The notes: generated by a model from the letters alone, not told the origin. A stretch of 64,000 nt of DNA from a virus (IMGVR_UViG_3300012665_001805), one strand, 5' to 3'; positions 895 through 52,020 are shown, numbered from the stretch's first letter. Made by a program: numbers and translations.

Positions 895-904
895 AATATA
901 CGAA
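895..904 (-). promoter_or_regulatory. promoter-like motif (minus sense TTCGTATATT)
   Basis: ~30 nt upstream of start of ORF 55..864. Confidence 0.45.
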
Positions 905-925
905 TTCTCTTTTACTTCTCCAAAT

Positions 926-1276
926 TTATTTTACAAAAAGCTGAACTAATAGTATGGCAAGTGCTAATCCTAAACAAATTAATGTTTTTGTTGTTAATGG
1001 TTCATTAAACACAGACCAACTCAATAAACTAAAAACTATTGCACCTATTGAAAATCCAATTAAACGTGACGGCCACATTTGTCCATCAAATGCCATAACC
1101 ATGTTTTTAACTGAGTACATGAATAACATTGAAATAGGTATTCCCATTAATACTGTTAACCAGTAGTGATTTTTAAACCACTCATACTTCATAGGGCCTT
1201 GTAATTGGAAGAATGTTGCTACTTGAGCTAAAAATCCAAAAAACATTCCTACCAATAACGCTCCTACATTTACCAT
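926..1276 (-). CDS. small integral membrane protein
   Basis: 116 aa, 3-4 hydrophobic helices. Confidence 0.35.
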   Translation of the reverse strand: MVNVGALLVGMFFGFLAQVATFFQLQGPMKYEWFKNHYWLTVLMGIPISMLFMYSVKNMVMAFDGQMWPSRLIGFSIGAIVFSLLSWSVFNEPLTTKTLICLGLALAILLVQLFVK

Positions 1277-1623
1277 TACTTATAAAATTTACTATCATCA
1301 ATTTCCAATTCAAACTCAAACGAGTCATCTTTGTAGTAATCATCTTCCTCTTCCTCCTCACTGAAGTCATCAAAGTCATCTTCATCGTCTCGGTACTCAG
1401 GTAACAATCCTAATTTCTCAATTAACCACCATGTTCTGTCTTTGTACAAATCGATTGATACACCTTCAATTTCCTCTACACCATTGTCCGTCAATTGGGC
1501 CAAGTGAGCAATCAAATCGCATGTTAAATTGTCCATCTCATCGATATCATAACCACCTGCTTTGAACTTTGATTTGATGTTTAAGAACTTTGTCTCAATA
1601 ATATTTTTTTCCTTTTTAGCCAT
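1276..1623 (-). CDS. acidic hypothetical protein (poly D/E C-terminal tail)
   Basis: 115 aa; C-terminus DDEDDFDDFSEEEEEDDYY; motif AATATACGAA on plus strand at 1651-1660 just upstream of start. Confidence 0.4.
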   Translation of the reverse strand: MAKKEKNIIETKFLNIKSKFKAGGYDIDEMDNLTCDLIAHLAQLTDNGVEEIEGVSIDLYKDRTWWLIEKLGLLPEYRDDEDDFDDFSEEEEEDDYYKDDSFEFELEIDDSKFYK

Positions 1624-1654
1624 AACTTTTATTTCTTATTTTATACATTTAATA

Positions 1655-1680
1655 TACGAAAGCCCTCTTACGAGGGCTAT
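1655..1680 (-). terminator. hairpin GCCCTC-TTAC-GAGGGC followed (minus sense) by TTTCGTATATT promoter-like motif
   Basis: perfect 6-bp GC stem at 1662-1677 between two minus-strand genes. Confidence 0.4.
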
Positions 1681-1683
1681 TCC

Positions 1684-2430
1684 TTAAGCAAAACTTTCAA
1701 CTAATGAAAACAGTTGTTGATTCAATCTGATATCTTCTTTCATGTTTGTAACATCATGTGTTAGGTTTTCCTGGATGCGATTGAATACAGTCCACAAATC
1801 ATTACTTTCATCTTCAACTCTATTAACTGCGAATAGATCATCAATATTGATTTTATCTAAATTATCATATCTCAAACGAGCTGCTTCAATAGCTAACTTA
1901 CGCATATCTTCAATTGATAATCCTTTATGTTTCATTTCATTTACTTCAGTTAGCAATTTATTTGCTTTACTATTCATTGAAGTAACAAAACGATCTAAAT
2001 CTCTATAGTTAATTTCAGTATGTTTGATTTTTTGTGATTCAGCTTGTTGATCAAATCTAATCATACCATTTGAACATACTTGACGGAACATACCTAAGCT
2101 CATTTGTAATGGTTGAGCTCCGTTACAGCTATTTGATAATGTAATTGAAGTAAACGCTTCGTGTTTACCTTGTTTGTTTTGTATAGCAAAATCAGGATGT
2201 TGTAGCTGAACATAGTTGTTTGATATTTTACGATTGCTACCTCGTTGTTCAGAAACTCCGCTTAATCTCCATCCTTCATCTTGTAGTTTTGTAACTAAAT
2301 CTAGTGTTGGGATATAAAATTCCTTTTGTTTAATACGTTGTACGTTTCGAATGTTATTGTTATCTAACGTGTTAGCAAATGCTATTGCTTTGTTTAAGTC
2401 ATTATCGACTTGAATAAATTTGTTTTTCAT
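1684..2430 (-). CDS. DUF932-like phage/plasmid protein (paralog B)
   Basis: 248 aa; shares GMFRQVCSNGMI core and overall collinearity with ORF 55..864. Confidence 0.45.
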   Translation of the reverse strand: MKNKFIQVDNDLNKAIAFANTLDNNNIRNVQRIKQKEFYIPTLDLVTKLQDEGWRLSGVSEQRGSNRKISNNYVQLQHPDFAIQNKQGKHEAFTSITLSNSCNGAQPLQMSLGMFRQVCSNGMIRFDQQAESQKIKHTEINYRDLDRFVTSMNSKANKLLTEVNEMKHKGLSIEDMRKLAIEAARLRYDNLDKINIDDLFAVNRVEDESNDLWTVFNRIQENLTHDVTNMKEDIRLNQQLFSLVESFA

Positions 2431-2632
2431 AACAGTTTTTATTTTTTATTAGTTGAATAAATAGGTTTAACATTACCTTTACTATCGATTGTATACGATA
2501 TAGGTTGTTTTAAATTGTTCGCTTTGTTGTAGCGACCTTTTGCAGTTGATTTACCTCCTGAACAGCTCATAATTTTATCCTTTTAAATATGATTGAATAT
2601 ACGAAAGGAGGATTGCTCCTCCTATTCATTTA

Positions 2633-3436
2633 TTATTCTTCTTCTTGATTAAAAGCGTAATGAACTCCGTCCTTGTAGATCGAAAAGTAGATTTTAAAAT
2701 CTTTATCGCAATCACGATTCTTTTCGAAATGCATTGATCGCTCTAAACCATCTCTACTACGCTCAACTTTACAAAACGCTTCCATCATGTGTTTCAATCG
2801 GTTTGATCCTGCAAATTCATCTGATTTAGTCATTTGCTGGATATTGATGAATGAAGTATAGTAATTTTGTTTGTTTTTACCTTTTTTAACTTCATCTTGC
2901 AATTTCAAAAACCATGATTCAGCTTGTTTTGATGTACCTCCGTTTTGATCTTTGTACATATCTAAAATCTCTGCGATTGAATCAACTGCGATTACATCAT
3001 ATCCTAAGCTGAATACGTGTTCAACTGTTTCTTTGATACTATCCATATGATCTTTCAAAAACAATGTTTGAACACAACCAAATGCAGGCATTCTTCGACA
3101 GTATTTGTAATGACCGATTTGATCCATTTCGCCTTGTACTAACAAGCATTTCAAACCTTGCATTGTAAACTTAGATAACATATCCATTACTAACGTTGAC
3201 TTACCTGAACCAGGACCACCTGCGATCATCATTGATGTACCTGGCATTAAACCACCATCAGTAGATAAAATCAAATCTACTTCAGTATTTGTTTTTAATG
3301 GTACGAATAATGATTCGTTGAATGATAAATCGTTACCTCTAAATAACTTTACTGATGCAGGGTTGAATGATGTTTCAACTTTTTGTTTTGCAGGACGACC
3401 TCTTTTCACTGTAATTTCTCTTTTTTCAATCTTCAT
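2633..3436 (-). CDS. RecA-superfamily ATPase (DnaB C-terminal/Sak4-like), N-terminal AT-hook-like KRGRPAK
   Basis: Walker A GGPGSGKST, Walker B hhhhD (VIAVDSIAE), 267 aa. Confidence 0.55.
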   Translation of the reverse strand: MKIEKREITVKRGRPAKQKVETSFNPASVKLFRGNDLSFNESLFVPLKTNTEVDLILSTDGGLMPGTSMMIAGGPGSGKSTLVMDMLSKFTMQGLKCLLVQGEMDQIGHYKYCRRMPAFGCVQTLFLKDHMDSIKETVEHVFSLGYDVIAVDSIAEILDMYKDQNGGTSKQAESWFLKLQDEVKKGKNKQNYYTSFINIQQMTKSDEFAGSNRLKHMMEAFCKVERSRDGLERSMHFEKNRDCDKDFKIYFSIYKDGVHYAFNQEEE

Positions 3437-3458: not shown

Positions 3459-3468
3459 AATATACGAA
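3459..3468 (-). promoter_or_regulatory. promoter-like motif (minus sense TTCGTATATTTAAGCAAATAAAAAG)
   Basis: 26-nt extended match to copy at 3748-3757; upstream of ORF 2633..3436. Confidence 0.5.
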
Positions 3469-3496
3469 CTTTTTCTTATTAAAACTATTCCTTTAC

Positions 3497-3730
3497 TTAA
3501 TGATTTCTACTCCATGCTTCAGCACCTGTAGTATTATCATGTTGAGGCCAATTGTGGTTAAACATTATGTTTGGATTATGATATGCCCAATAGTAAACGA
3601 TTGACAATATCAACCACAACCAAAACAAAATAAAATATTTACCAAATAAACCTCTTATAAACCATCTGATGAAAGAGATTGCTAGACCAAACAATAATAC
3701 ACCTTCTAATAATCTAAAAAATCCTTTCAT
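3497..3730 (-). CDS. small membrane protein
   Basis: 77 aa, two TM helices, W-rich; promoter-like motif at 3748-3757. Confidence 0.3.
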   Translation of the reverse strand: MKGFFRLLEGVLLFGLAISFIRWFIRGLFGKYFILFWLWLILSIVYYWAYHNPNIMFNHNWPQHDNTTGAEAWSRNH

Positions 3731-3747: not shown

Positions 3748-3757
3748 AATATACGAA
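3748..3757 (-). promoter_or_regulatory. promoter-like motif (TTCGTATATTTAAGCAAATAAAAAG)
   Basis: upstream of ORF 3497..3730. Confidence 0.5.
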
Positions 3758-3781
3758 ATTAATTTTACTACTCTTGTTCCT

Positions 3782-3991
3782 TTACAAATACTCTATCTCT
3801 AATTTGAATGTAGTTCCTTGTTGAATCATTCTTACTTGCTCTAAATTATTCAGTGGTTTAGCCGAATCAAAGTTATCACTGAAATCAGGGTAACCACCTA
3901 TTAAACCACAAAATACTTGGGCTAACTCATTCAACACTATAAATTCAGGTACTTTGGGTTCGCGTTTTTTCTTATCTACTAAATAACTCAT
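3782..3991 (-). CDS. hypothetical protein
   Basis: 69 aa ORF, minus strand in gene-dense context. Confidence 0.25.
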   Translation of the reverse strand: MSYLVDKKKREPKVPEFIVLNELAQVFCGLIGGYPDFSDNFDSAKPLNNLEQVRMIQQGTTFKLEIEYL

Positions 3992-4011
3992 TTTCTTAAT
4001 TTTGGATGAAC

Positions 4012-4040
4012 ATACAAAAGCCCCCTTGCGGGGGCTATTC
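4012..4040 (-). terminator. intrinsic terminator-like hairpin AGCCCCC-TTGC-GGGGGCT
   Basis: 7-bp GC stem, minus-sense followed by TTTTGTATG. Confidence 0.45.
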
Positions 4041-5261: not shown

Positions 5262-5450
5262 TTAAATTAATTTATATAACATTTTACCTAACCGCATACT
5301 AACATAAAGCCATAATCCAGTTGCGGCAAGCTGGATATAACCATTTACTTCTCTACTTACTATATATTCGCCTAATAGTCCAGTAAGTATTCCGAATGAA
5401 AGAACAATTCCTGTGGCTTTCATTACTTTGTTTACGTGTTTATTTTTCAT
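5262..5450 (-). CDS. small membrane protein
   Basis: 62 aa, two TM helices; variant promoter motif AATATACAAA at 5459-5468. Confidence 0.3.
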   Translation of the reverse strand: MKNKHVNKVMKATGIVLSFGILTGLLGEYIVSREVNGYIQLAATGLWLYVSMRLGKMLYKLI

Positions 5451-5492
5451 TTCTCTTAATATACAAAACTTTTATTTAAATAACAAGTACTT

Positions 5493-6553: not shown

Positions 6554-7705
6554 TTAGTGACTATCTCCTACGTTGTGTTTTTCTCCGTAAATTAAATAGT
6601 CTGGGTTAATTACTTTAGCTACTTTGTTTCGTTCTCCACTTATATGTTTGATAACAATCCCTTCATGTGGTACTTTAGTTCCTTCAATGAAGTTGTTGAA
6701 TACAAACTTGTCTTGGATTTCTTGTGACCATGATCCTTTATATAGTACTTCTACATATGGTAACTCTATAATGTATTTAATTGTATATTTTGATGATAAT
6801 ACTTCTACATATTTTCCATTTTGTACTAAATCAAATCCAACAAATTCCATATCTTTCAAACCATATTCATAGTTCTTTTGGATACCTGCTCCATAAATTT
6901 CCCCATAAATGATGATACCTGATCCAATATCTTCTGGGTTGGAGTAGTTGGTAACAAAATCCCAAAGTTTTTCTTTGATCTTATATTTCTCAGCAATTGT
7001 TCTCCAAACATCAGTTGAGTAAAAACCTTGTGAGTCAGATCCTTTTTCAACGTTATGTGAACCATAAACATATTCATATTCTGCCCATTCATTACCAAAG
7101 AATCGTCTTACTTTATCCCATAAAGACAATTTACTTTTCTTTACAATACCATAACGAGCATTTGTACCATGGATTTTACGAGTAATCTCAATGTGATCTT
7201 CACTTGTAAACATTCCTGTAACATTTTTCAAGTTAGGGAACTTGTAATACACTCCAAAGTTTTGGTTTTGGTGGTATTTGAATTTACGGCCTGAAGCTAA
7301 TTGGATTTGTACTGTAGGTGGTTCATATTTGAAGATACCTAAAACTTCCATCAAATCTTCCCCTTCTTTCCAGTAATAACCAATGCCTGTAGCATATTGC
7401 TTTTTCATTTGAGGTAAGCTATTAAAAGGAATAATCAAACACTCAGAATAAACACCTCGTAATTTCACTGTTCTTACACGTTGACCTTTACGTAGATAAT
7501 TAGTTACTCCAATTGAATCTGATATTTCTTGAGGGATAACAGCATCTGTTGTTGCTACAACAACATACTCACCTACGGTGTATTCTCCTTTTTTAACAAT
7601 AGCATTCCAACCACCAACAACTGCTAATTCAATATTGTCAGCACCTTCAATTACTTTTACTTCTGTTACGATTCCTACGTAACATACACTATTATTATTT
7701 TCCAT
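6554..7705 (-). CDS. RNA ligase, Rnl2 family, with N-terminal tRNA-binding OB-fold (Trbp111/CsaA-like) domain
   Basis: motif I RKIHGTNARYGIV (T4 Rnl2 EKIHGTNF), motif IYGEIYGAGIQKNYEYG vs Rnl2 VFGEFAGPGIQKNVDYG; first ~110 aa fit the tRNA-binding OB pattern VGxVxEVxxIxGADxIxLxxVxGG...GxYVVVA. Confidence 0.75.
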   Translation of the reverse strand: MENNNSVCYVGIVTEVKVIEGADNIELAVVGGWNAIVKKGEYTVGEYVVVATTDAVIPQEISDSIGVTNYLRKGQRVRTVKLRGVYSECLIIPFNSLPQMKKQYATGIGYYWKEGEDLMEVLGIFKYEPPTVQIQLASGRKFKYHQNQNFGVYYKFPNLKNVTGMFTSEDHIEITRKIHGTNARYGIVKKSKLSLWDKVRRFFGNEWAEYEYVYGSHNVEKGSDSQGFYSTDVWRTIAEKYKIKEKLWDFVTNYSNPEDIGSGIIIYGEIYGAGIQKNYEYGLKDMEFVGFDLVQNGKYVEVLSSKYTIKYIIELPYVEVLYKGSWSQEIQDKFVFNNFIEGTKVPHEGIVIKHISGERNKVAKVINPDYLIYGEKHNVGDSH

Positions 7706-7714
7706 TTCTTACAA

Positions 7715-7912
7715 TTATTTTAAATTATTAAATGCTTCTGTTAATTTTGCATAAATAAAATCTATTTCTTCCTGAGATTCTATGGGGAATGACTCAGTTG
7801 TATCAATCTTTAATTCCATCCATCCTTCTGTGTGGTGTATTTCAATATCAATAAAATCATCACCTTTTTGAATTGAAAAGGCATCCATGTTCATTTTAAT
7901 TCCTGTAGACAT
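7715..7912 (-). CDS. hypothetical protein
   Basis: 65 aa acidic. Confidence 0.25.
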   Translation of the reverse strand: MSTGIKMNMDAFSIQKGDDFIDIEIHHTEGWMELKIDTTESFPIESQEEIDFIYAKLTEAFNNLK

Positions 7913-7915
7913 TTT

Positions 7916-8299
7916 TTATAATTTTATTTCAAATCGGTTTTTCATTTGTTCTAATTTATCTGCTGGTACTCCATGCTGGTTTACCCCCTCATGGCGATTT
8001 TCAACTACAATGGAATGTACTCGATAATCATACTGTTCAGCTAATTTATAATAAGCTTCCATTTCCCATTCTTGAGTGAATGTATTTGATACAACTACGT
8101 TATATCCCCGTTTCATCCAACCCTTAGCTTGAAATTGACACCACTCATGAGCTTGTTTAAGTTTAGTAGGATCAAATTGATAAATTCCATTCACCACAAA
8201 AAACTCATCTGCCTCAACATGTTGATTACATATCAGTTTAGCTAATGTTGATTTACCACTACCTGGTAGCCCGCGAAGTAAGATTAGTTCTTTTTTCAT
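7916..8299 (-). CDS. P-loop polynucleotide 5'-kinase-like protein (T4 Pnk kinase-domain-like)
   Basis: LLRGLPGSGKSTLAKL Walker A at N-terminus as in T4 Pnk (IGCPGSGKST); 127 aa; adjacent to RNA ligase. Confidence 0.55.
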   Translation of the reverse strand: MKKELILLRGLPGSGKSTLAKLICNQHVEADEFFVVNGIYQFDPTKLKQAHEWCQFQAKGWMKRGYNVVVSNTFTQEWEMEAYYKLAEQYDYRVHSIVVENRHEGVNQHGVPADKLEQMKNRFEIKL

Positions 8300-8334
8300 T
8301 TTAAAATAAATCGTTTAAATGTTCAGGTACAGTA

Positions 8335-8571
8335 TCAGCTATGTGCTTCTTCCAAAACCTCTTGATCATCCTCAATAATTTCTGCATCTTGTATAGTTTC
8401 TACAAATAAAAAATGTGTTTCATTTCGCAACACATGATCTACCTTTGGTAAACCATCTCTCCATATTTGTACACCTTCTAAATCAACTTTACCTTCTTTA
8501 TCTGTAAATAAAGAAATAGCGATTGTACGGTGAATTATATAGTATTTGTCGTTGTGTTTATAGAAACTCAT
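8335..8571 (-). CDS. hypothetical protein
   Basis: 78 aa. Confidence 0.25.
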   Translation of the reverse strand: MSFYKHNDKYYIIHRTIAISLFTDKEGKVDLEGVQIWRDGLPKVDHVLRNETHFLFVETIQDAEIIEDDQEVLEEAHS

Positions 8572-8861
8572 TTGATGTCGTATTGTTTTTTAAATGACTC
8601 AATAAACGATTCTCCTAATCCAATATCAACTATCTCAAAGTTAGATGGGATAAGTGGTTTACGTTTGGATGGGTTAATAATAGAATCAACACCATCTTCT
8701 GTTATTAACATATAATGTTTTTTACCTGTTGGTTTTTTATACACAACTACTGTTGGTATTTTCTTTTCAGCTGGTCTACCTTTATTTTCGTGTACATTCA
8801 TAGATTGTGTATGGGGGTAAAATGGTTTGAATTCGGTTATTTGAGTTGAAATAAAATACAC
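8568..8861 (-). CDS. hypothetical protein
   Basis: 97 aa. Confidence 0.25.
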   Translation of the reverse strand: MYFISTQITEFKPFYPHTQSMNVHENKGRPAEKKIPTVVVYKKPTGKKHYMLITEDGVDSIINPSKRKPLIPSNFEIVDIGLGESFIESFKKQYDIK

Positions 8862-9066
8862 TATCGTCTGTTGTTAGATATTCATTTGTGTATGCTATTG
8901 CATCCTGTTTCTCTCCATCAACTAATACTTTCCCTTCAATACGGTATTGGTAAAATTGAGAATATGCATCACAACTTGACTTATTTGGTCTACATGAAAA
9001 TAATAAAAAACCAATTGTAATACCTGCTAATAAATGTAAAATGTAGTAATAGATTTGTTTTTTCAT
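8782..9066 (-). CDS. lipoprotein
   Basis: signal peptide with LLFSC lipobox; promoter motif at 9108-9117. Confidence 0.35.
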   Translation of the reverse strand: MKKQIYYYILHLLAGITIGFLLFSCRPNKSSCDAYSQFYQYRIEGKVLVDGEKQDAIAYTNEYLTTDDSVFYFNSNNRIQTILPPYTIYECTRK

Positions 9067-9428
9067 AGTTTATATAATTCGTAAATACTATTTTCTGTTC
9101 TAAATTTAATATACGAAAGATCATCTGCTAAATCAAGGATTTCAGTAATTACTGTTGTTTGCCAAGTGAAGAAATGGTTAAATGGAGACATAAGTAATGA
9201 ACGACCAATTGCTGGTTCATCATGTTTTGCTTGGAAACGACCTTCATCATTCCATTCAAGCCAAATTATCGCTTTGGATTTTTTGTTTAATCCATCTCCT
9301 TCTCTAACTAATCTCCAATTAAATTCATTGTCAACTAAACCCATCAATTCAGCTTGTTGGGCATCCATTTCAAGTTCCCCGTTTTCATTCAGTGAAACTA
9401 ATGCTTTTGGTTGTACTCCTCCTATCAT
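9063..9428 (-). CDS. hypothetical protein
   Basis: 121 aa. Confidence 0.3.
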   Translation of the reverse strand: MIGGVQPKALVSLNENGELEMDAQQAELMGLVDNEFNWRLVREGDGLNKKSKAIIWLEWNDEGRFQAKHDEPAIGRSLLMSPFNHFFTWQTTVITEILDLADDLSYIKFRTENSIYELYKL

Positions 9429-11499: not shown

Positions 11500-11507
11500 T
11501 ATATTTG

Positions 11508-11942: not shown

Positions 11943-11948
11943 AGTGTG

Positions 11949-12188: not shown

Positions 12189-12194
12189 AATTTG

Positions 12195-43713: not shown

Positions 43714-44394
43714 TTATTTATTTAAAAATTGTGTTAGATTTGGTCTAAAGTAATTAATGTTTTTCATTACCTTTCTGTCACGCGTTCTATAGACGATATA
43801 ATATCTACCAACCTTCTCATAGTGACATGCTTCCTCTTGCTCGGAAGAACGTACTCTAACGGTTTCTTGTGCCTCTTCTTCGCTTGTACAAGCTTTGCTA
43901 AGATTGGACGCTTGTACTTCTTGATACGCGGGCCATACTTTATTCTTAAGACCATGTAGCATAGCACCGTTACCCAATGAAACATAGGTAATGTCACATA
44001 GAGCATCAAGAACTTCAACAATGTTTCCCGTTTCACAAGCGTGTTTGTATTCTTCAAGTTCTTCCAAAATAAAATTATAGACAAACATCCACTCCTTCTC
44101 ATCGGGAATGACCGGGGTATAATTATTTGGTTTCCCCATAATTGCATTAAATTCTTCAACTTCTGATACAAATGGAACATAGGCGTCTTTCATTTGGGAG
44201 ATTTCTTGATTTAATCGAGACCATTCTTTAGTTACATCATTTCCAAGTTCAATTTTAGACATCATAGAAAGATCTACTACTTGACTTGTTAATAAATTAA
44301 TTAACTCTGTTTGTTTTTGTTCTAGGGTCATAGGGATTGCTTTTTTAGCTAGGAATGGAAGTATTTTATTTTTATATGCTTTAAAAGTTCTCAT
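43714..44394 (-). CDS. MazG-like nucleoside triphosphate pyrophosphohydrolase (all-alpha NTP-PPase)
   Basis: EELEEYKHA ... EVLDALCDI E-x2-E ... D metal-binding pattern. Confidence 0.5.
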   Translation of the reverse strand: MRTFKAYKNKILPFLAKKAIPMTLEQKQTELINLLTSQVVDLSMMSKIELGNDVTKEWSRLNQEISQMKDAYVPFVSEVEEFNAIMGKPNNYTPVIPDEKEWMFVYNFILEELEEYKHACETGNIVEVLDALCDITYVSLGNGAMLHGLKNKVWPAYQEVQASNLSKACTSEEEAQETVRVRSSEQEEACHYEKVGRYYIVYRTRDRKVMKNINYFRPNLTQFLNK

Positions 44395-45089
44395 ATCTGA
44401 TGTCCTCCATTATTAATTTTTAATGAATCAAAGAATTCTTTACGTGCTTGATTATTATTTTCCATAAACACACCTGATGCTTTAGTTGTAACCATTGAAG
44501 CACCTTGGTGTTTAACACCTCTACAAGATACACAATTGTGGGTTGCTACTACTGTAACAATTACACCTCTGTTTTTCTCACAAATTTTATCTACTGCTTG
44601 GTGAATAGCTGCTGTTAATTGTTCTTGGATAGCACCTCTACGACCAAAATGTTCTACAATTCGGTTCAATTTAGATAATCCAATTACTCGACCTTCATCT
44701 CCAACGATATAACCAATATGAACTACTCCTCCAATTGTTTGGTGGTGGTGAGAACACATTGAAGTTAATGGGATGTTTCTCTCAATTACGATACCATTAT
44801 ATCCGTCTGAAGGAAATGAAGTAATATCTGACATTGCTGTATATCTACCTGAAAATAAATCGAATACATAAGCTTTAGCTACACGTCTAGGTGTATTATC
44901 GGAGTTTGGATCGTTTTCCCAATCAACACCTAATGCTGTAAGGAATTCACCATACGCTTTTTCAGCTTTATCAACCATTTCCCATTTTTGTTCTTCGGTA
45001 AGGGGGAACCCAGGTGCAACTCCATTCGCGAAACCTGTTTTAACACACTCTAAATCAGTGTGGTTTTTTCTACGTTTGTTTTCTGACAT
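44391..45089 (-). CDS. folE: GTP cyclohydrolase I (FolE)
   Basis: SMCSHHHQ (cf. SMCEHHL), VIGLSKLNRIVE, HQAV...RGV motifs. Confidence 0.9.
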   Translation of the reverse strand: MSENKRRKNHTDLECVKTGFANGVAPGFPLTEEQKWEMVDKAEKAYGEFLTALGVDWENDPNSDNTPRRVAKAYVFDLFSGRYTAMSDITSFPSDGYNGIVIERNIPLTSMCSHHHQTIGGVVHIGYIVGDEGRVIGLSKLNRIVEHFGRRGAIQEQLTAAIHQAVDKICEKNRGVIVTVVATHNCVSCRGVKHQGASMVTTKASGVFMENNNQARKEFFDSLKINNGGHQI

Positions 45090-45345
45090 ATAACTTAATT
45101 AATTTATGTATTTAATGTATGAAGGATATTTGGGGTATCCAAGTTAAAATGAGGGGAGCGAATCAAAATCAATAATCTAGTCCGGGTTCAAAGAGATTTA
45201 AATTTATTGAAATGCGCGAGGATTGATGTTTTGAGTTTTTGAATTTTGATTGGGCGTACCTTATCATCATCACTTATCCGCTATGTGGCTCATAGTTGAA
45301 TTGTAAGAACATCGAAAATCAATTTCTCATCACTCCCTACTCAAA

Positions 45346-45774
45346 TTAAATTTGTGTTGTTGCGTTATGAACGTCCAACTCAGCTTGAATTTCTTCAATT
45401 CTTGCTTCTAATGTTTGCACCATCGTATCAAGTTGGGCAATATTAATTTCTACTTCTTTTACAGATACTACTGAGCTGTATCGTGCTTCAGATTTTCCTT
45501 CTTCCGTTGGAATTTTTCTTAATTCCTTGATACGGTTTTTTAACTCAGCCATACGGAAAATCTTATCGTATACCGGAGCGTTTGCTAGATGGATTTTAGT
45601 TTTTAACTCTGTTAACTCTAAAGTTAACTCAACTGCTTTATCCAATGCTGCTTGCACCGAATAACGTCTAATATTCCCTTCTTCTTGGGAATTAAATTTT
45701 TGTGCAATTTGGTATTGCTTTTTTAGTTCAATAACTAATTTGTTTTTTTGCTTTAATGCTTGAGATACATTCAT
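45346..45774 (-). CDS. coiled-coil hypothetical protein
   Basis: 142 aa heptad-rich. Confidence 0.3.
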   Translation of the reverse strand: MNVSQALKQKNKLVIELKKQYQIAQKFNSQEEGNIRRYSVQAALDKAVELTLELTELKTKIHLANAPVYDKIFRMAELKNRIKELRKIPTEEGKSEARYSSVVSVKEVEINIAQLDTMVQTLEARIEEIQAELDVHNATTQI

Positions 45775-45822
45775 GACTTTTATTTTTGTTATAATATACT
45801 AAATTTATTTACATTATCCAAG

Positions 45823-46317
45823 TTAGAGTGCGTAAATATAATCTAAATTACGCTCTTTTTTATTGTTATCCATCCCATAACCTACTACCCATTCATCTTG
45901 AATTATGAAACCATAATGTAAAGGATAATCAGGTATTGGAGAGATATCTCTAGTTAATAAAGTAACTACTTCTATTGTCTTAGGGTTGAAACTAGATAAA
46001 TGATTTACAATAGAATCTAAAGTAGTTCCAGAATCATAAAAATCATCTACTACATATACCGTTTTTCCTTCAATATCTGCTTCAATATCTTTTGTAATGT
46101 GAACTACACCTTGATCTTGACCATTATATGATTTAGCTCTCATAAAATCAAATTCAACATCTGTTGACATGTTTCTTACTAAATCACTAAAGAACATAAC
46201 TCCACCATTTAATACACAAATCATTACAACATCATCATTTTCAGTGTGTTTAAAATCAATGGTGTGAGCCATTTCTGTTACTTTATCTTGGATTTGTTTA
46301 GATGTAAATAAAATCAT
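45823..46317 (-). CDS. hypoxanthine/guanine phosphoribosyltransferase-like PRTase
   Basis: PRPP motif VYVVDDFYDSGTTL; C-terminal WVVGYGMD...RNLDYIY (cf. Hpt FVVGYGLDYAERYRNLPYI). Confidence 0.8.
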   Translation of the reverse strand: MILFTSKQIQDKVTEMAHTIDFKHTENDDVVMICVLNGGVMFFSDLVRNMSTDVEFDFMRAKSYNGQDQGVVHITKDIEADIEGKTVYVVDDFYDSGTTLDSIVNHLSSFNPKTIEVVTLLTRDISPIPDYPLHYGFIIQDEWVVGYGMDNNKKERNLDYIYAL

Positions 46318-47099
46318 TATACTCCTCTTTTTGTATCAAATGCAATAATATGATCTCTACCTGTCATATTGTATCCTTTTTCAGCACACATATCAAATAC
46401 AAGTGGATACATTTTAATTAATTCCTCTCTAGTATCTCCTGCTGGCATGATATAGGTTTTATCTTTAGGGATCTCTAGAAATTGTCTAATATCTTCAATT
46501 TCATTTAGATTTTCCTCTGTACCATCCCATACTGGTTTAAAGTGGTAATCTGTGTGAAAGTCGATCATCGCAGCCATTGCACTCAAGTTCATTCTCAACT
46601 TGTTGTGTTGGTTGACCATCTTTTGATCCGTGATTGCACCCGATGGTGTAGGAGTACCCACAACGGGTACACTATTACTAAACTTAGGACTAAGAGATAT
46701 AAGCCCAATAGGATAGTCAGTGTCAAGAAAATGCGACCCTTCAGTTTCAATAGTGATAAGAATACCTCTTTCATGAGCAAAATGTGTCAATTCGTTAACC
46801 AATTTTGGATGCATTGTAGGTGAACCTCCAGTTAACATCATTTCTTTGATGTGTGGATTTTCATCATAAATTTTGATGATATCATTAAAGGTAAACGTAC
46901 CTTTTTCTGGGTGGATACTTGTGTACCAAGAATCACACCATCCGCCTTCACCAAAGAAGCAACGGTGAGTACAACCTGTTGTGCGAACTGCAATCGTTGG
47001 ACGTCCAAAACGAGATCCCTCACTTTGAACGCAACGATATAGTTCTATAATAGGTAAAACTTTGTTATAATCTTCTATTCTTCCTAAAGTAGATTCCAT
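46317..47099 (-). CDS. queE: 7-carboxy-7-deazaguanine synthase (QueE, radical SAM)
   Basis: PIIELYRCVQSEGSRFGRPTIAVRTTGCTHRC...WCDS aligns with B. subtilis QueE N-terminus; unusual Cx3Cx7C spacing. Confidence 0.7.
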   Translation of the reverse strand: MESTLGRIEDYNKVLPIIELYRCVQSEGSRFGRPTIAVRTTGCTHRCFFGEGGWCDSWYTSIHPEKGTFTFNDIIKIYDENPHIKEMMLTGGSPTMHPKLVNELTHFAHERGILITIETEGSHFLDTDYPIGLISLSPKFSNSVPVVGTPTPSGAITDQKMVNQHNKLRMNLSAMAAMIDFHTDYHFKPVWDGTEENLNEIEDIRQFLEIPKDKTYIMPAGDTREELIKMYPLVFDMCAEKGYNMTGRDHIIAFDTKRGV

Positions 47100-47332
47100 T
47101 TTTCTTTTACTTGTGCTTCTGTTAAAACTCCGATTGACTTGTCTGCTTCTTGTCCGTCTTTCAAGAAAACTAACATTGGTACGCTTCGTACGCTATATTG
47201 AGCAGATAATGTTGGATTTTCATCCACGTTGATGAAACGTACAGGCATTGAATTACTTACGCGTTCCATAATAGGTTTGAAATTTCTGCATGGTCCACAC
47301 CATGGGGCACTAAAATAAAGAATTTCTTTCAT
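47084..47332 (-). CDS. thioredoxin
   Basis: WCGPC active site, 82 aa. Confidence 0.85.
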   Translation of the reverse strand: MKEILYFSAPWCGPCRNFKPIMERVSNSMPVRFINVDENPTLSAQYSVRSVPMLVFLKDGQEADKSIGVLTEAQVKEKWNLL

Positions 47333-47389
47333 TTTGTTAAAATATATGTAAATTTAATATCACCAAATGTAGTGGTGGAAATATAATAA

Positions 47390-47866
47390 TTATCCTTCAT
47401 AAATACTAGAGTTATTGTCGTTTTCGAAACATTCTACTTTGATTACTCGGCAACGTCCCGCGTCTGTTTTAGATAGTACTTCATTAAAATGATCAAATAC
47501 TAACTTAGCACATGATTCTGCGCCCATTTTGTCCATTACTCGAAGTGCACATAAACCTTCCATTGCTGCTGATTCGAAAAAGTCTAAGTATGGATCATCC
47601 TTCTCGATCAACAATGTGTGATCCCACATATAGTTCATCCAAGATTTCAAACCATTACCTTTAGGTGCATCTTTGAACCCACCGTAATCAACGATCCAGT
47701 TCATGTCATCTAATTGATTTTCCTCTAGTGGTTCGTTTGAAGCAAACCATACTTTGAATTTCAAAGCATAACCATGTAACAATTCACAATGTGAGTGAGA
47801 TGCTCTCCATTGTCTAAGTGCTACTGAATAATTTTCAAATAATTTTGTACTAATATATCTACCCAT
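47390..47866 (-). CDS. queD: 6-carboxy-5,6,7,8-tetrahydropterin synthase (QueD)
   Basis: SHSHCELLHGY (cf. E. coli HKCGRLHGH), WDHTLL (cf. LDHHYL). Confidence 0.7.
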   Translation of the reverse strand: MGRYISTKLFENYSVALRQWRASHSHCELLHGYALKFKVWFASNEPLEENQLDDMNWIVDYGGFKDAPKGNGLKSWMNYMWDHTLLIEKDDPYLDFFESAAMEGLCALRVMDKMGAESCAKLVFDHFNEVLSKTDAGRCRVIKVECFENDNNSSIYEG

Positions 47867-47867
47867 T

Positions 47868-48128
47868 TTAATTTATTTTATCGTAAGTTAATTCAAAGAT
47901 ATCAGGTTTACACGGATAAAATTCTCCTTTAACACCTTTAATAACATAATCGTTCCAAGAAAGTTCCATATCTCCTTCTAAAGTTCTTATAAAGTGGTAT
48001 AATGCTTCACCATCAGCTGAAGGGGTTACTATTAGGTTATTACCTAACATTTCATATACTTTTTCAATGTTATCAGATACGAATTGGATCGCTTCAATTT
48101 CAACTGGTTTTTTTCTGTATCTACCCAT
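47868..48128 (-). CDS. hypothetical protein
   Basis: 86 aa. Confidence 0.3.
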   Translation of the reverse strand: MGRYRKKPVEIEAIQFVSDNIEKVYEMLGNNLIVTPSADGEALYHFIRTLEGDMELSWNDYVIKGVKGEFYPCKPDIFELTYDKIN

Positions 48129-48299
48129 TTTTCTTTGTTGTTTTAGGTTTTTTAATTTCTGTATCTATATCGGTTAATTCGATAGTTACGTACTCGGGGA
48201 AGAACATATTTAATCCTACCCCGGTACAAATTTTAATGGTTCTTTTCTTTGCCATAACTTTTTGGTGTAATTCCCAGTTTATAATGCTTTTATCTTGCA

Positions 48300-48653
48300 T
48301 TATAGAGTAACTGTAAAAATTTGTTTGATAACAATTTCATTTGCTTCATATTTGTTATCTAATTTTTTAGCTACAGCAAAATCAATTGATACTCCTGGTT
48401 TATCTTCAATCCACATTTCTGTGATAAATTCGGAAGATTTAATTCCGTTGTGTTTATTGCGTGTTACTTTGAATACTGCTACTTTTACTTGTTGATTCAT
48501 GCTTGTTCCGTTATTATTTAATGTTAAACCTCCGTAAATGGTTGTTCCTGTTGTTAATGTTGTTCCTGATGTGTAATCGCCATTGAACATTCCGTTAAAT
48601 GATGTCGATGGGGTTGCACCTAGTGCTGTGTGTGTTGTTGGTGTGTTAAACAT
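48300..48653 (-). CDS. hypothetical protein, Thr/Gly-rich N-terminus
   Basis: 117 aa; no Cys, so not QueF. Confidence 0.3.
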   Translation of the reverse strand: MFNTPTTHTALGATPSTSFNGMFNGDYTSGTTLTTGTTIYGGLTLNNNGTSMNQQVKVAVFKVTRNKHNGIKSSEFITEMWIEDKPGVSIDFAVAKKLDNKYEANEIVIKQIFTVTL

Positions 48654-48656
48654 ATT

Positions 48657-49556
48657 TTAATTATTATGAGTTTCTAATACTTTTGTTACTTCTTCTACTA
48701 CATGTTCCCATGTTACGGGGCCATTCTCGTTTGCATACTTTGCAGGATCAGGACGACCTAATTTAATAAAGGCCTCTACACGCTCCACGGAACTTGCTGA
48801 TTTGTAATCAGAATACCATTCACCGAATTTAGTTCTAAGTGTTTCTTCTACTCGAGATGAAGCAGGTGCATATTCAATATAAATTGGTTTGTAAGATGTA
48901 TTTGTACGTGAATATACTTCCTCGAATTTAAGACCTAATTTATTACATAATCCTTCTCCATCTTGTAAGATAGTAAATTTATCACCTTCAAGATATGGTG
49001 TAAAGTAACCTACTTTTTCAGAACCCCAATTTCCAATTCTGAATGCTGCATCATCGGCATCACGGAATTCTTGTCTGCAATCTGGATAAATAGCATGATC
49101 ACCAGCGTGAATACCCATTGCAATATCACATTGTTCACCTGTTTTATCAGCGATTGAAAGTGCAACTGCTTGAGTAATTGAAGCAAAGATTTTGTTACGA
49201 TTAGGAACAACTGTTGCTTTCATATTTTCTTCAGCATAATGTCCTTCAGGTACTTCATCTCCACCTGTTACTAGTGCTGAATTAAGCAGATCTACTAGTC
49301 CATTTAATTGGATTTGGCGGTAGTTAACATGAGGGTATACTTCAATAAACCCATCAGGAAGTTTATTATGCGCATACATTCGTGTAGGATTATCATTTAA
49401 ATAATCTACTAATGATTGAGCGCGTTCAAGCTCAACTCTATGTTTTTGACCATAGTCAAAACTCAATGCTGTTACTGTATCGTACTCTTTCAAGCAACGA
49501 AGTAACAATGTAGAGGAGTCCATCCCTCCGCTAAGACTAACTACTACGTGTTTCAT
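48657..49556 (-). CDS. queC: 7-cyano-7-deazaguanine synthase-like PP-loop ATPase (QueC-like, extended C-terminus)
   Basis: N-terminal VVSLSGGMDSST PP-loop; 299 aa vs ~230 typical, lacks obvious C-terminal Zn Cys cluster. Confidence 0.7.
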   Translation of the reverse strand: MKHVVVSLSGGMDSSTLLLRCLKEYDTVTALSFDYGQKHRVELERAQSLVDYLNDNPTRMYAHNKLPDGFIEVYPHVNYRQIQLNGLVDLLNSALVTGGDEVPEGHYAEENMKATVVPNRNKIFASITQAVALSIADKTGEQCDIAMGIHAGDHAIYPDCRQEFRDADDAAFRIGNWGSEKVGYFTPYLEGDKFTILQDGEGLCNKLGLKFEEVYSRTNTSYKPIYIEYAPASSRVEETLRTKFGEWYSDYKSASSVERVEAFIKLGRPDPAKYANENGPVTWEHVVEEVTKVLETHNN

Positions 49557-49565
49557 ATTTTTTTA

Positions 49566-49817
49566 TTAAAATGGTAAATCATCATCTTCTAGTACTTTTG
49601 TACTCCAGTCAATTTCACCAGGTAAATCATCTGCTGGTCTAAAATAGAAATCCAAGAAATCTTTAGGGTATAAATGTACTGTACCTGTATATTTTGGATT
49701 TGAAATTTCTCTGTTTTGTGGTTTGATACCACCTTTATAAGCTGCCTGTGCAACTTCACCACCTAGTTCTTTACCTGCTGGTTTTCCTAGATAATCATAT
49801 AAACTTAAATATTCCAT
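49566..49817 (-). CDS. hypothetical protein
   Basis: 83 aa. Confidence 0.3.
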   Translation of the reverse strand: MEYLSLYDYLGKPAGKELGGEVAQAAYKGGIKPQNREISNPKYTGTVHLYPKDFLDFYFRPADDLPGEIDWSTKVLEDDDLPF

Positions 49818-49864
49818 AACTTTTTATTTGTATAAATATAATAAAAGAAAATATGGACTCCAAA

Positions 49865-50662
49865 TTAGAGCCCATTTATTTCACGAAACATACTAACATT
49901 CCAATCAATAAGATCTTCATTAATGAAATCAATACTTACATCTTGGTATTTATTCATATTTGCAATTGGTTTCATATGTAATCCCATTTTTGTATAAGGC
50001 ATTTCACCAATTGCAGCCATAATTGGATTTGATGTATCAATTGATTCAATACAAGGAATATTTTTATACATTCCAAATTCAATAGGTGATGCAGTTCCAA
50101 GCAAATGTACTCGATCATGTTGAGTTAACATTTTATCTTTATATAAACCACTCAAAACCATGTAACGACCAATTGCTTTACCCAAATCTACATTTGGATG
50201 CGGGCACATTTCACTATGGTAGTATTCAGCACCATATGAAAATGCAATTTTCTTGTATCCAAAATCACGATATGCTTGAACACATAAAAGTGCTTCATGT
50301 GATGATTTTGCTTGCACTACAGCTACTTTAATGGTATTGGATGGCATTTCAACACCTGCCCATTGTTTTGCATTTCTAACTGAAGAGGCATAATCTTCCC
50401 ATACATCTGGTACGATGAATTCGTTTGGTTTGATTTCATTTACCCAATGCATTAGGCGTTCTGAATTATAGGCTTCACCTAGTTCATGTAATGAATTATC
50501 CATTACAATATATCGTCCCATTTTCTTTGATTCATAGAAGAAATTACGGTATTCTTCATTTTCATCCATTAAGTGAGGTAAACAATAATCATAATCATTG
50601 AAAGCTCTACTCTGTTCTAAGAGGCAAAATGGTACCTCGTGGCTAATTTTTACTTTTTTCAT
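49865..50662 (-). CDS. tRNA-guanine-transglycosylase-superfamily protein, DpdA-like (candidate DNA 7-deazaguanine transglycosylase)
   Basis: 265 aa; VMDNSLHEL and RVHLLGTASP resemble TGT DSGG and HLxGxG motifs; heads the deazaguanine cluster. Confidence 0.5.
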   Translation of the reverse strand: MKKVKISHEVPFCLLEQSRAFNDYDYCLPHLMDENEEYRNFFYESKKMGRYIVMDNSLHELGEAYNSERLMHWVNEIKPNEFIVPDVWEDYASSVRNAKQWAGVEMPSNTIKVAVVQAKSSHEALLCVQAYRDFGYKKIAFSYGAEYYHSEMCPHPNVDLGKAIGRYMVLSGLYKDKMLTQHDRVHLLGTASPIEFGMYKNIPCIESIDTSNPIMAAIGEMPYTKMGLHMKPIANMNKYQDVSIDFINEDLIDWNVSMFREINGL

Positions 50663-50949
50663 GCTTCTGCGTATGCGTGTTCTTTTACTTCTGTCATTAA
50701 TGTTTCAGGATCTGCAAATCGTTGGGCATCATATCCAATCCAACGCATTCCCATTTTAGTGGTACCTTCATTTACGATACCTCTAATAATATAAACTCGT
50801 TGATCTAACGCATTTATATATTCCGATTCAACTTCATATTCTTTTCCTTTGATAACCTTAGCACCTTCAGGTAACCTACTATCATTTATACAAACAACTA
50901 CTTTCATATCAATCTGGGTTATAGTTATAAACTTTGTTAGCATATCCAT
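50659..50949 (-). CDS. hypothetical protein
   Basis: 96 aa. Confidence 0.3.
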   Translation of the reverse strand: MDMLTKFITITQIDMKVVVCINDSRLPEGAKVIKGKEYEVESEYINALDQRVYIIRGIVNEGTTKMGMRWIGYDAQRFADPETLMTEVKEHAYAEA

Positions 50950-51424
50950 TTACACAAGGACGTCCTGTATTGTATTCTCCAAATACTAATTTCCAATTAC
51001 CTCGCAAATTGTATAATCTTCTAAGTAATTTCATTGAAGTATACACATTATATTTAATGTCTGTACGTAATTTTTCCTTAGATACCATATCTTTGTTGAT
51101 ATAACGTGCAGTGGAAACCATTACTTGCATTGGTCCTACAGCTCCTGCACAAGATGTTTGAGCATGATTGTATTTCCAGTGGAAAGGACCTTTATATCCT
51201 GTTTCTGTATTTGCAATACCCAATGCATATCTCAACGGAATATTAAATGTATCAGCGTATGCTTTAATGTACTTATACATTTGCAATGATGGTGGTGATC
51301 CTTGATCGATACTATCCGGAATGCGCACTTCTTGAGTTGCTTCAACTTCCGGTTTAGTAACGGTGAAAGTGGTAACAGCAACCGCTCCTACCACAATCCC
51401 GACTTTAATACTATTTACCAGCAT
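50909..51424 (-). CDS. lytic transglycosylase (SLT domain), membrane-anchored
   Basis: N-terminal TM; ETGYKG...SCAGAVGPMQV matches SLT E-S-...AGA-G-MQ motif. Confidence 0.6.
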   Translation of the reverse strand: MLVNSIKVGIVVGAVAVTTFTVTKPEVEATQEVRIPDSIDQGSPPSLQMYKYIKAYADTFNIPLRYALGIANTETGYKGPFHWKYNHAQTSCAGAVGPMQVMVSTARYINKDMVSKEKLRTDIKYNVYTSMKLLRRLYNLRGNWKLVFGEYNTGRPCVNGYANKVYNYNPD

Positions 51425-51731
51425 TTGCTACTTCTTGGTGAATACGATTTGCATACATTCCAAAAATGGTTTGACCAATTTGATCTGAGTATACAATATA
51501 TTTTCCTGTTGCACGCTCAATCATGATCAATTCATTTGATTCATTGACAGCAATTGAAATTTCCTCAGGTGAAAATGCATGTGCATATGGGTTTTCTACT
51601 TTAGTATCTTCTTTTTGAGATGCTTGATACATTCCTCCTAACTTAAACATTGATGTTCCTACAGCAACTACAATAATTACATTCATTGCTGGCTTAAGTG
51701 TTTTAGCGATTGCTTCTTTTGTGATTTTCAT
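51411..51731 (-). CDS. membrane hypothetical protein
   Basis: 106 aa. Confidence 0.3.
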   Translation of the reverse strand: MKITKEAIAKTLKPAMNVIIVVAVGTSMFKLGGMYQASQKEDTKVENPYAHAFSPEEISIAVNESNELIMIERATGKYIVYSDQIGQTIFGMYANRIHQEVANAGK

Positions 51732-51750
51732 AACTTTTATTTTTAGGGAT

Positions 51751-51990
51751 TTATTTATTTTTCTTTACTGATTTTTTGATCTCATTATAGATATGCAACT
51801 CTGATTCAAATGTATTACCTTCGAATAGTGGTTGTTCAGTTAGTCTACCATGTTCAGTAGATGTACCATCGGGATTGATAGTTTTAGAAATTCGAATTCG
51901 TTTAGATGGTTCAGTAGGTTTTTTACAAAGCAAACCTAAACGTCTCAAAAATGACTTAAATTTTGTTTTTGTTTTTTTTCTAAATGTCAT
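51751..51990 (-). CDS. hypothetical basic protein
   Basis: 79 aa; promoter motif at 52011-52020. Confidence 0.3.
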   Translation of the reverse strand: MTFRKKTKTKFKSFLRRLGLLCKKPTEPSKRIRISKTINPDGTSTEHGRLTEQPLFEGNTFESELHIYNEIKKSVKKNK

Positions 51991-52010
51991 AACTCTTATT
52001 TTATAAGTGA

Positions 52011-52020
52011 AATATACGAA
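52011..52020 (-). promoter_or_regulatory. promoter-like motif TTCGTATATT
   Basis: ~20 nt upstream of ORF 51751..51990. Confidence 0.45.

Follow-up and report, generated by a model that had tools for sequence, protein, structure and literature searches.

A putative two-part, pre-late promoter class in a lineage of large Flavobacterium-type phages

Introduction

Among described promoters of the Bacteroidota, those read by sigma-A (sigma-ABfr) consist of a -33 TTTG and a -7 TAnnTTTG box (TAHHTTTG in F. johnsoniae). They provide the nearest bacterial counterpart of a recurrent element, with the 10-mer TTCGTATATT at its core, which was identified in a 64,000-nt stretch of viral DNA (IMGVR_UViG_3300012665_001805; hereafter the window, with positions counted from its first letter). 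The -33 box of F. johnsoniae is weak, and hardly any variation is seen at T-12, A-11, T-8, T-7, T-6 and G-5 (PMC6847099). The sigma-A motifs of F. psychrophilum are TAnnTTTG with 5' and 3' extensions, and the -33 TTTG is found only in the sub-class with the highest expression (PMC9723704 and its supplement). Promoters of the latter species include TTTCTTATATTTG and TTTTCATATATTTG (Table S2, PMC9723704), and TATATTTG was found 103 times in its promoter table (PMC9723704 supplement). It is apparent that a TTYn-TATATT core, followed by TG, is shared by these host promoters.

Among phage promoters, the nearest counterparts are the promoter-early stem-loops (PeSLs) of T4-type phages (Arbiol 2010; Comeau 2014), which are composite early-promoter/terminator units located between small open reading frames (ORFs) and exchanged among relatives (PMC4122927, PMC2839356). 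Freshwater Far-T4 contigs with queuosine genes have been reported in a paper that contains no promoter analysis (PMC4360716), and Far-T4-like phages have been tied in silico to Bacteroidetes (PMC7198788). In the literature library searched, the 10-mer was found only in primers and other unrelated sequences, and no paper ties the motif to phages. The signal described here is real and lineage-wide, and appears to be previously undescribed.

Recurrence and strand bias of the element

The plus-strand form of the 10-mer, AATATACGAA, was matched exactly at 11 places in the window, every one of them on the plus strand. Dinucleotide shuffling predicts 0.23, and none of 100 shuffled sequences gave as many as 11; allowing R at position 8 raises the count to 15 (1.47 expected). 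The minus strand carries all long ORFs as well as 25 tRNA genes, and TTCGTATATT, the sense-strand form, is the most over-represented 10-mer outside tRNA T-loop words (order-3 Markov p = 7e-17). The recurrent motif reported in a first-pass annotation of this DNA is, on these counts, real. Most of the coordinates listed there were also correct, the exceptions being 12325, 39890 and a variant at 5459, which should read 12324, 39880 and 5458. The location it gave, 20-40 nt before gene starts, holds roughly: the gap between motif and ATG is 17-30 nt at 8 of the 11 sites, and the sites at 9108, 10488 and 12324 depart from it. The 26-nt extension said to be common to the copies at 3459 and 3748 was likewise found, as a duplicated promoter-leader unit in which TTCGTATATTTAAGCAAATAAAAAGG is identical in both.

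Copies of the 10-mer with one or two mismatches numbered 169 in the window, against 153 expected. This total is at chance level, so that copies are either exact or indistinguishable from noise. A looser, two-part pattern, T[TA]G-N16-TTnnTAn[AG]TT, gave 26 sense and 2 antisense matches, and 21 of its copies fall in the non-coding DNA that makes up 10.7% of the window. These counts and positions indicate that the exact 10-mer is the consensus core of a class of approximately 23 sites, ten copies of which lie within 1-15 kb, among small ORFs.

Two-part structure and predicted transcription start

Alignment of the copies in the sense orientation showed that T(T/A)GG is also conserved, as a separate block upstream of the 10-mer. 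Its spacing was determined in the window, in the cultured Flavobacterium phage vB_FspM_immuto (hereafter immuto) and in 79 related IMG/VR loci, which were retrieved with the window's DNA polymerase (53-98% protein identity; one, at 98%, is on a contig of 173,789 bp). T[TA]G is situated exactly 16 nt before TTnnTATATT, i.e. 20 nt before TATATT, at 18 of 24 sites in the window, 34 of 43 in immuto and 219 of 306 in the related loci; the corresponding figures for the antisense strands are 1 of 13, 0 of 22 and 8 of 266. Read as a promoter, the element has TTG at -35 to -33 and, after a spacer of 17 bp, TATATT at -12 to -7, with TTCG (-16 to -13) directly ahead of it. Of 23 window sites, 13 have TTG as the -35 element and 10 have TAG.

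The base located 7 nt past the hexamer, which is the predicted start, is A at 21 of the 23 window sites and at 72 of 98 distinct sites in the relatives. The spacing to the upstream TTG/TAG is constant, while the distance from the motif to the downstream start ranges from 6 to 47 nt. No ATG comes closer than 6 nt to the hexamer: four genes (start codons at 35937, 33189, 40658 and 5450) have gaps of 6, 6, 6 and 7 nt, and for most others the gap is 17-30 nt. Constant spacing on the upstream side, spacing that varies within limits on the downstream side, and the conserved A would all be predicted for a promoter at which transcription starts about 7 nt past the -10. With that predicted start, the mRNAs of the four genes would be leaderless, a type reported to be rare in Flavobacterium (5.5% in F. 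psychrophilum). Six intergenic copies of the approximately 23 have a strong hairpin over the spacer or -35 region (-12.4 to -15.5 kcal/mol), and the remainder have none. A hairpin in this position implies that one gene's terminator overlaps with the promoter of the gene that follows.

Conservation in uncultured relatives and in immuto

The 10-mer occurs 88 times in the sense and 5 times in the antisense orientation in the 1.29 Mb represented by the related loci and the window. At the orthologous site before the gene that heads the GroES/GroEL operon, the element is kept in more than 50 relatives. TATATT and the TT upstream of it are invariant there, positions 3-4 vary (CG, TG, AG, CA, AA) and the -35 toggles between TTAGG, TTTGG, CTTGG and CGTGY. 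Dozens of relatives have a gap of exactly 6 nt ahead of the clamp-loader gene and ahead of a gene for a 244-aa protein, and the hexamer drifts in them (TATATT, TATAAT, TATCTT, TACATT); at the latter gene, the whole -35/spacer cassette is exchanged between a hairpin and a non-hairpin version.

A scan of IMG/VR for TTGG-N15-TTCGTATATT matched at least 120 stretches. Among the matches listed, same-strand arrays of T[TA]G-N16-TTnnTATATT were observed, with 17, 14, 11, 8 and 8 copies per 11-13 kb. The array-bearing loci (L227, L225, L273, L245 and L209) have a long conserved leader that is particular to each lineage, e.g. TATATTTAAGTATTATTAATTAAAAA.

A DUF932-like protein and an endolysin (79.5% identity) led to immuto, a 160-kb phage that infects Flavobacterium sp. 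LMO8 and has a family-A polymerase. It shares 36 of 100 window proteins and is syntenic with the window over a nuclease-glycosyltransferase-HNH-DUF932 stretch. In its whole genome, TTG-N20-TATATT is found 39 times in the sense and 3 times in the antisense orientation, with 34 of the copies in the non-structural first 80 kb, which contain replication and nucleotide-metabolism genes and many small ORFs. The immuto consensus is aGTTGc ... TTCnTATATTTAGGTATCAATAATTAAAACA, and long identical leaders recur. No Shine-Dalgarno sequences were found at the start regions in the window, and the Bacteroidota are described as lacking them (PMC6847099); together with the kinship to immuto, this makes a Flavobacterium-like host likely.

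Taken together, the strand specificity, the intergenic location, the rigidly spaced TTG/TAG, the A at the predicted start and the retention of the element at orthologous sites bear out the promoter-like behaviour that had been suggested for the motif. On this evidence, the TTCGTATATT class is very probably a class of promoters.

Comparison with known promoter classes

The first-pass annotation held that the motif does not resemble the sigma-A consensus of the Bacteroidetes. In detail, this proved wrong. The phage element has TTG at -35 to -33, 20 nt between TTG and TA (T[TA]G 20 nt before TATATT, the distance expected of a -33 box), T-12, A-11, T-8 and T-7, and a T-rich extension upstream of the box like that in TTTCTTATATTTG and TTTTCATATATTTG; only T-6 and G-5 are missing. 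TATATT is the reading of all 11 exact copies, and TA..(T/A)T is retained at the orthologous sites of the relatives. The box found in immuto and in several uncultured arrays, TATATTTA, matches the host consensus at seven of eight positions and is thus one base off it. Judged by the shared bases and the extension, the phage element is the host's extended -7 box, shortened by two bases at its end and joined to a strong -33 TTG. The differences are that -5 is usually A in the phage and that T-8 may be A (TATAAT), that the -33 TTG is nearly obligatory in the phage and weak or dispensable in most host promoters, and that the TTC(G) extension is far more uniform in the phage.

Host-type boxes are scarce in sense intergenic DNA. 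TAnnTTTG occurs 118 times in the window, against 101 expected, mostly on the non-coding strand, and TAHHTTTG was found only twice in the sense non-coding DNA of the window, neither instance being convincing. In the 10.7 kb of sense non-coding DNA in the complete immuto genome, TAHHTTTG was not found at all.

In comparison with T4 PeSLs, the likeness lies in the many near-identical, probably early promoters of sigma-70 geometry that precede small ORFs, in what may be variable parts of a T4-related genome, in the terminator stem-loop that is built into part of the promoters (six of approximately 23 copies in the window), and in the presence of alternative cassettes at one locus in close relatives. 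The PeSL consensus is TTGACA or TTTACW ... TATAAT, whereas that of the present class is TTG(G)/TAG ... TTCGTATATT; the host phylum here is the Bacteroidota, and only about one-quarter of the copies carry a hairpin. By analogy, the present class appears to work as PeSL cassettes do, with another consensus and in another host phylum.

The E. coli sigma-70 promoter (TTGACA-N17-TATAAT), and with it the T4 early promoter, shares with the element the 17-bp spacer, a -35 TTG, a -10 TAnnnT (TATATT/TATAAT) and a purine start 7 nt downstream, which for the element is predicted. It differs in that the -35 is here TTGG or TAGG and that TTCG stands in place of the TGn of an extended -10; moreover, Bacteroidota, according to reports, make no use of E. 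coli promoters. A generic sigma-70 scan of the window gave 46 matches against 62.6 expected, i.e. no enrichment. The geometry of the element is that of a sigma-70-family holoenzyme and not of a single-subunit polymerase.

Two further identities were considered and rejected. Promoters for an extracytoplasmic function (ECF) sigma factor have AAC at -35 and CGT at -10 (an ECF-type motif, SM6, is given in PMC9723704). The -35 here is TTG/TAG instead of AAC, and the CG of TTCG varies in the relatives and in immuto (TTCA, TTCT, TTAG, TTTG), while TATATT is invariant. In T4 middle promoters (MotA/AsiA), a MotA box (TGCTT) near -30 takes the place of the -35; the upstream element here is TTG/TAG at the canonical -35, and the PHROGs search with window proteins returned no MotA or AsiA match.

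Temporal class and a separate late-like motif

The genes behind the element are small early-type ORFs, a tRNA sub-cluster, GroES/GroEL, the clamp and clamp-loader genes and queuosine genes. A second motif, TAT(G/T)TATAATA, is found in the window in five sense and no antisense copies, all on the minus strand and each 11-57 nt before an ATG. Four copies are 11-20 nt from it; the copy at 39913 is just upstream of the class-I site at 39880-39908, and its ATG is 57 nt on. In the structural half of immuto, a T4-late-like TATTTATAATA motif, cTATTTATAA(T/A)A, was observed ahead of the portal, sheath, tail-spike, tape-measure and other genes. The late-like motif numbers 11 vs 17 between the two halves, and the two motifs partition by half (Fisher p = 6e-5).

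This split, together with the gene content, indicates that the TTCGTATATT class is probably a pre-late (early/middle) class. The temporal class of the downstream genes, which had been put forward for checking in the first-pass annotation, is accordingly, by gene content, probably pre-late. Identity with T4 late promoters, read by gp55 (gp55/gp33/gp45), was rejected. The likeness to the T4 late box, TATAAATA, is limited to the separate motif TAT(G/T)TATAATA, and the box itself is not enriched in the window (13 against 14.4 expected). The TTCGTATATT class, in contrast, needs an upstream element, its -35 being obligatory, and shuns structural genes, 34 of the 39 immuto copies being outside the structural half; both features argue that it is not a late class.

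Recognition of the element

The reading favoured here, with moderate confidence, is that the element is a pre-late, two-part promoter of sigma-70 type belonging to a Flavobacterium-type phage lineage, most likely read by host sigma-A. In this proposal TTCGTATATT would act as an extended -10, paired with T(T/A)G at -35 to -33 over a fixed 17-bp spacer. Transcription would start at the conserved A about 7 nt past the hexamer. The leaders would then measure 10-25 nt, and genes whose ATG is exactly 6 nt past the hexamer would give leaderless mRNAs. The class would drive small early ORFs, tRNAs, chaperonin, replication and nucleotide/queuosine genes, with the separate motif TAT(G/T)TATAATA serving late genes. 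About one-quarter of the copies would be composite terminator-promoter cassettes of PeSL type, with a hairpin in the spacer.

The reader would be the host core RNA polymerase with its primary sigma-A, and the -33 TTG and TTC extension would offset the missing T-6 and G-5. Consistent with this, the universal contacts (TTG, T-12, A-11, T-7) are kept, and the element is near the host box. Since immuto has no canonical host box in its sense non-coding DNA, the TTCGTATATT class must be readable by whatever RNA polymerase is present at time zero. Without G-5, open complexes may be short-lived, which is the situation at rRNA promoters in E. coli. Haugen et al. reportedly found in 2006 that sigma region 1.2 of E. 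coli is contacted by the base two past the -10 hexamer, and that open complexes are short-lived if this base is not G. Promoters of the rRNA type with a non-G base are strong if their other elements are near consensus, and they respond to DksA. That host sigma-A suffices is inferred and is, on balance, slightly favoured.

Several observations weigh against the favoured reading. TG at -6/-5 occurs in 0 of 23 window sites, 0 of 49 immuto sites and 3 of 98 sites in the relatives (approximately 170 in total), with no preference for these bases, and Flavobacterium sigma-A promoters hardly ever depart from T-6 and G-5 (PMC6847099). The class is missing (0-1 matches) from Olleya phage Harreka_1 and from Cellulophaga phages phi19:1 and phi4:1. 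The temporal class was deduced from gene content only. Finally, a comparison of GroEL with 185,579 genomes gave approximately 50% identity to many phyla, and so no host signal.

The strongest alternative is that of the first-pass annotation, i.e. that the promoter is read only by an RNA polymerase specified by the phage. Its specificity would come from a sigma factor, encoded by the phage or brought in with the virion, from a sigma appropriator, or from a covalent modification by which T-6 and G-5 are no longer needed. The near-absence of TG would be explained by such a factor, as would the uniformity of the 10-mer (exact copies or noise) and the fact that the hexamer can be TATAAT, losing a T-8 that is near-invariant in the host. 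The restriction of the class to one lineage is in accord with it as well. The motif is specific to this lineage, as had been proposed: the three unrelated Flavobacteriaceae phages named above instead have canonical TTG-N18-20-TAHHTTTG, at intergenic and divergent-promoter positions. These canonical boxes fit a lineage-specific recognition factor as well as they fit kinetic tuning.

Candidates for such a factor were sought. Neither the window nor a rough search of immuto yielded a sigma, gp55, gp33, AsiA or MotA-like protein, which leaves the suggested phage sigma factor or modified polymerase unproven. PHROGs and Pfam searches with approximately 90 window proteins gave no transcription factor except a weak DksA-like zinc finger. 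Searches of the window, immuto and the related loci by tblastn with T4 gp55, gp45, RpbA, RegA and gp62 returned nothing, and phmmer with E. coli sigma-70 regions 2-4 (an approximate query) and gp55 gave nothing below E = 0.09. At that value, an immuto ORF (103762-104310, 182 aa) has a weak match to sigma-70 regions 2-4, which would favour a phage factor; neither it nor its neighbours have PHROG support. Two conserved genes near the polymerase, for proteins of 244 and 319 aa, were considered as sigma factors; the former resembles a sliding clamp and the latter has no assignment. The absence of sigma-like proteins is weak evidence, because such proteins diverge fast and the window is about one-third of the genome. 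Also against a phage-specified reader are the lack, in sense intergenic DNA of immuto, of a canonical host -7 box for the first expression of the factor, and the retention of host geometry and of seven of eight -7 box positions in immuto and several uncultured arrays. We know of no virion-delivered sigma factors. A requirement for a phage-specified factor is considered unlikely, while remaining the main competitor of host sigma-A.

A bolder form of this alternative, somewhat less likely still, is that the lineage (immuto-like, Far-T4-like, with 7-deazaguanine genes) redirects host RNA polymerase from the first minute by means of its own factor, or has had to drop G-5 because its guanines are replaced by 7-deazaguanine derivatives, which sigma cannot read. 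A specificity factor of this kind would either enter with the injected DNA or be expressed from a small number of cryptic promoters, and would establish a code, TTG-N16-TTCnTATATT-(T)A, orthogonal to the host TAnnTTTG.

A role in RNA, as the U-rich tail of a terminator, an RNase processing site or an A/U-rich leader that enhances translation, with the promoters further upstream, is highly improbable: six copies do stand right behind a G+C-rich hairpin, so that TTCGTATATT could be a terminator tail, and A/U-rich leaders would suit a host phylum without Shine-Dalgarno sequences (PMC6847099), but most copies have no hairpin, one stands ahead of tRNA genes, no other promoter-like signal was found upstream of these genes, and a fixed TTG/TAG distance combined with an ATG distance of 6-47 nt is promoter geometry rather than that of a translation signal. 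Equally improbable is the idea that the repeats are mainly binding or recombination sites (regulator operators or homologies for cassette shuffling) with promoter activity secondary. The alternative cassettes at one locus, the duplicated 26-nt unit, the recurring immuto leaders and the proposal of PeSLs as recombination points (PMC4122927) speak for it, but recombination would leave the strand bias, the -35/-10 spacing, the +1 A and the fixed 6-nt ATG gap unexplained; such a role is also compatible with a promoter, making this an addition rather than a replacement.

The phage, its gene content and the sites in the window

The gene set of the window is that of a large T4-related phage. It includes a gp43-type family-B DNA polymerase (40691-43420), gp44/gp62-type clamp-loader genes (35029-35937 and 34150-34581), GroES (39197-39502), GroEL (37567-39204), and genes for RNA ligase, a Pnk-like ATPase, a phosphoesterase, thymidylate synthase and endolysins. 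The relationship to cultured phages is remote. Two 8-kb pieces of the window gave no match to cultured phages by megablast, the best cultured match of the polymerase is at 32% identity, and polymerase and clamp loader reach only distant T4-type relatives (32-37%). The sites of the element and of the late-like motif are listed in Table 1.

Table 1. Copies of the two-part element and of the late-like motif in the window. All are on the minus strand; distances run from the element to the start of the first downstream gene (ATG, except for tRNA-Leu).
Position	Element	Features of the site	Downstream gene(s)	Distance (nt)
895-923	Class-I: TTG, N16, TTCGTATATT		55-864 (DUF932-like)	30
1651-1679	Class-I, exact 10-mer	Spacer terminator hairpin GCCCTC-gtaa-GAGGGC (-15.3 kcal/mol, z -4.1)	1276-1623	27
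2596-2624	Class-I, exact 10-mer	Spacer hairpin GGAGGA-gcaa-TCCTCC	2439-2570, then 1684-2430	25
3459-3487	Class-I, exact 10-mer	26 nt identical to 3748 copy	2633-3436 (KaiC/RecA-like ATPase)	22
3748-3776	Class-I, exact 10-mer	-35 degenerate (CAA)	3497-3730	17
4009-4037	Variant TTTGTATGTT	Spacer hairpin GCCCCC-gcaa-GGGGGC	3782-3991	17
5458-5486	Variant TTTGTATATT	mRNA would be near-leaderless	5262-5450	7
9108-9136	Class-I, exact 10-mer	Within 3' part of ORF 9063-9428	8782-9066	41
10488-10516	Class-I, exact 10-mer		26-codon mini-ORF 10388-10468, then phosphoesterase 9670-10377	19
12324-12352	Class-I, exact 10-mer	Inside tRNA cluster	tRNA-Leu 12194-12276, then further tRNAs	47
14894-14922	Class-I TTGGCT-N17-TATATT, exact 10-mer		14418-14876	17
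32002-32030	Variant TTCTTACATT		30540-31979 (glycosyltransferase)	22
33196-33224	Variant TTTGTACATT	mRNA would be leaderless	32254-33189 (exonuclease)	6
35944-35972	Variant TTTGTATATT	Spacer hairpin; gap kept in relatives	35029-35937 (gp44-like clamp loader)	6
39880-39908	Class-I, exact 10-mer	Orthologous site kept in relatives	39499-39855, then GroES, GroEL	24
40665-40693	Variant TTCATACATT	Gap kept in relatives, -35/spacer cassette swaps	39924-40658 (probable gp45-like sliding clamp)	6
45114-45142	Variant TTCATACATT		44391-45089 (GTP cyclohydrolase)	24
45793-45821	Variant TTAGTATATT		45346-45774	18
49835-49863	Variant TTATTATATT	Hairpin over -35 region	49566-49817	17
52011-52039	Class-I, exact 10-mer		51751-51990	20
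55353-55381	Variant TTTTTATATT	Spacer hairpin GGCTCCC-taa-GGGAGCC	54751-55335	17
33882-33892	Late-like TAT(G/T)TATAATA			
37306-37316	Late-like TAT(G/T)TATAATA			
39913-39923	Late-like TAT(G/T)TATAATA			57
58054-58064	Late-like TAT(G/T)TATAATA			
63337-63347	Late-like TAT(G/T)TATAATA			

Some of the genes behind the element, or close to it, deserve mention. The conserved 244-aa gene (39924-40658) directly follows the DNA polymerase gene and has weak, colinear profile matches to T4 gp45 and to another phage sliding clamp (E = 0.3); its product is probably a sliding clamp. The genes 2633-3436 and 39499-39855, each right behind an exact copy of the motif, encode an AT-hook-like RGRPA near the N-terminus. 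The product of the former is a KaiC/RecA-like ATPase, and that of the latter has a weak match to a PHROG labelled replication initiation protein. The mini-ORF that precedes the phosphoesterase gene (10388-10468, 26 codons) is hydrophobic (MKDDLKIALTVIGWFLLIATVAFIFS).

A DksA/TraR-like zinc finger is encoded at 16058-16369. The match is weak (E = 1.8e-4), and the syntenic counterpart in immuto (L160:17773-18180) is annotated as a DnaK suppressor protein. It is possible that this protein modulates RNA polymerase at the promoters described here.

A 7-deazaguanine module (44391-50662) comprises FolE, a phosphoribosyltransferase-like gene, QueE, QueD, QueC and a DpdA-like gene (49865-50662; 34% identity to immuto DpdA). 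To judge from these genes, the phage DNA is probably modified at guanines. A tRNA-repair-like set (6554-10377), consisting of an RNA ligase (6554-7705), a Pnk-like ATPase (7916-8299) and a metallophosphoesterase (9670-10377), adjoins the cluster of 25 tRNA genes (10985-13996), among which are three of tRNA-Met type and two for tRNA-Gln. A low-GC cluster (16911-31979; 27-32%) of glycosyltransferases, a DegT-type aminotransferase and sugar-modifying enzymes is syntenic with immuto, and only one class-I-like site (32002) was found ahead of it.

Significance

The identity of the element as an early/middle promoter is well supported by the sequence comparisons presented in the preceding sections, and the lineage uses its own promoter code. 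A promoter code is thereby defined for abundant, mostly uncultured, large phages of Flavobacterium type from fresh and brackish water. In combination with the late-like motif, it would allow genes to be assigned as early or late by sequence alone, and it flags genes whose mRNAs may be leaderless. The element also offers candidate strong, compact promoters and promoter-terminator cassettes for use in Flavobacteria.

T-6 and G-5 make up the best-conserved part of the host promoter, and their systematic loss amounts to a natural experiment on what the unusual sigma-A of the Bacteroidota needs. The central question is why the class dispenses with these bases, and the existence of a cultured relative, immuto on Flavobacterium sp. 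LMO8, makes such questions about the promoter testable.

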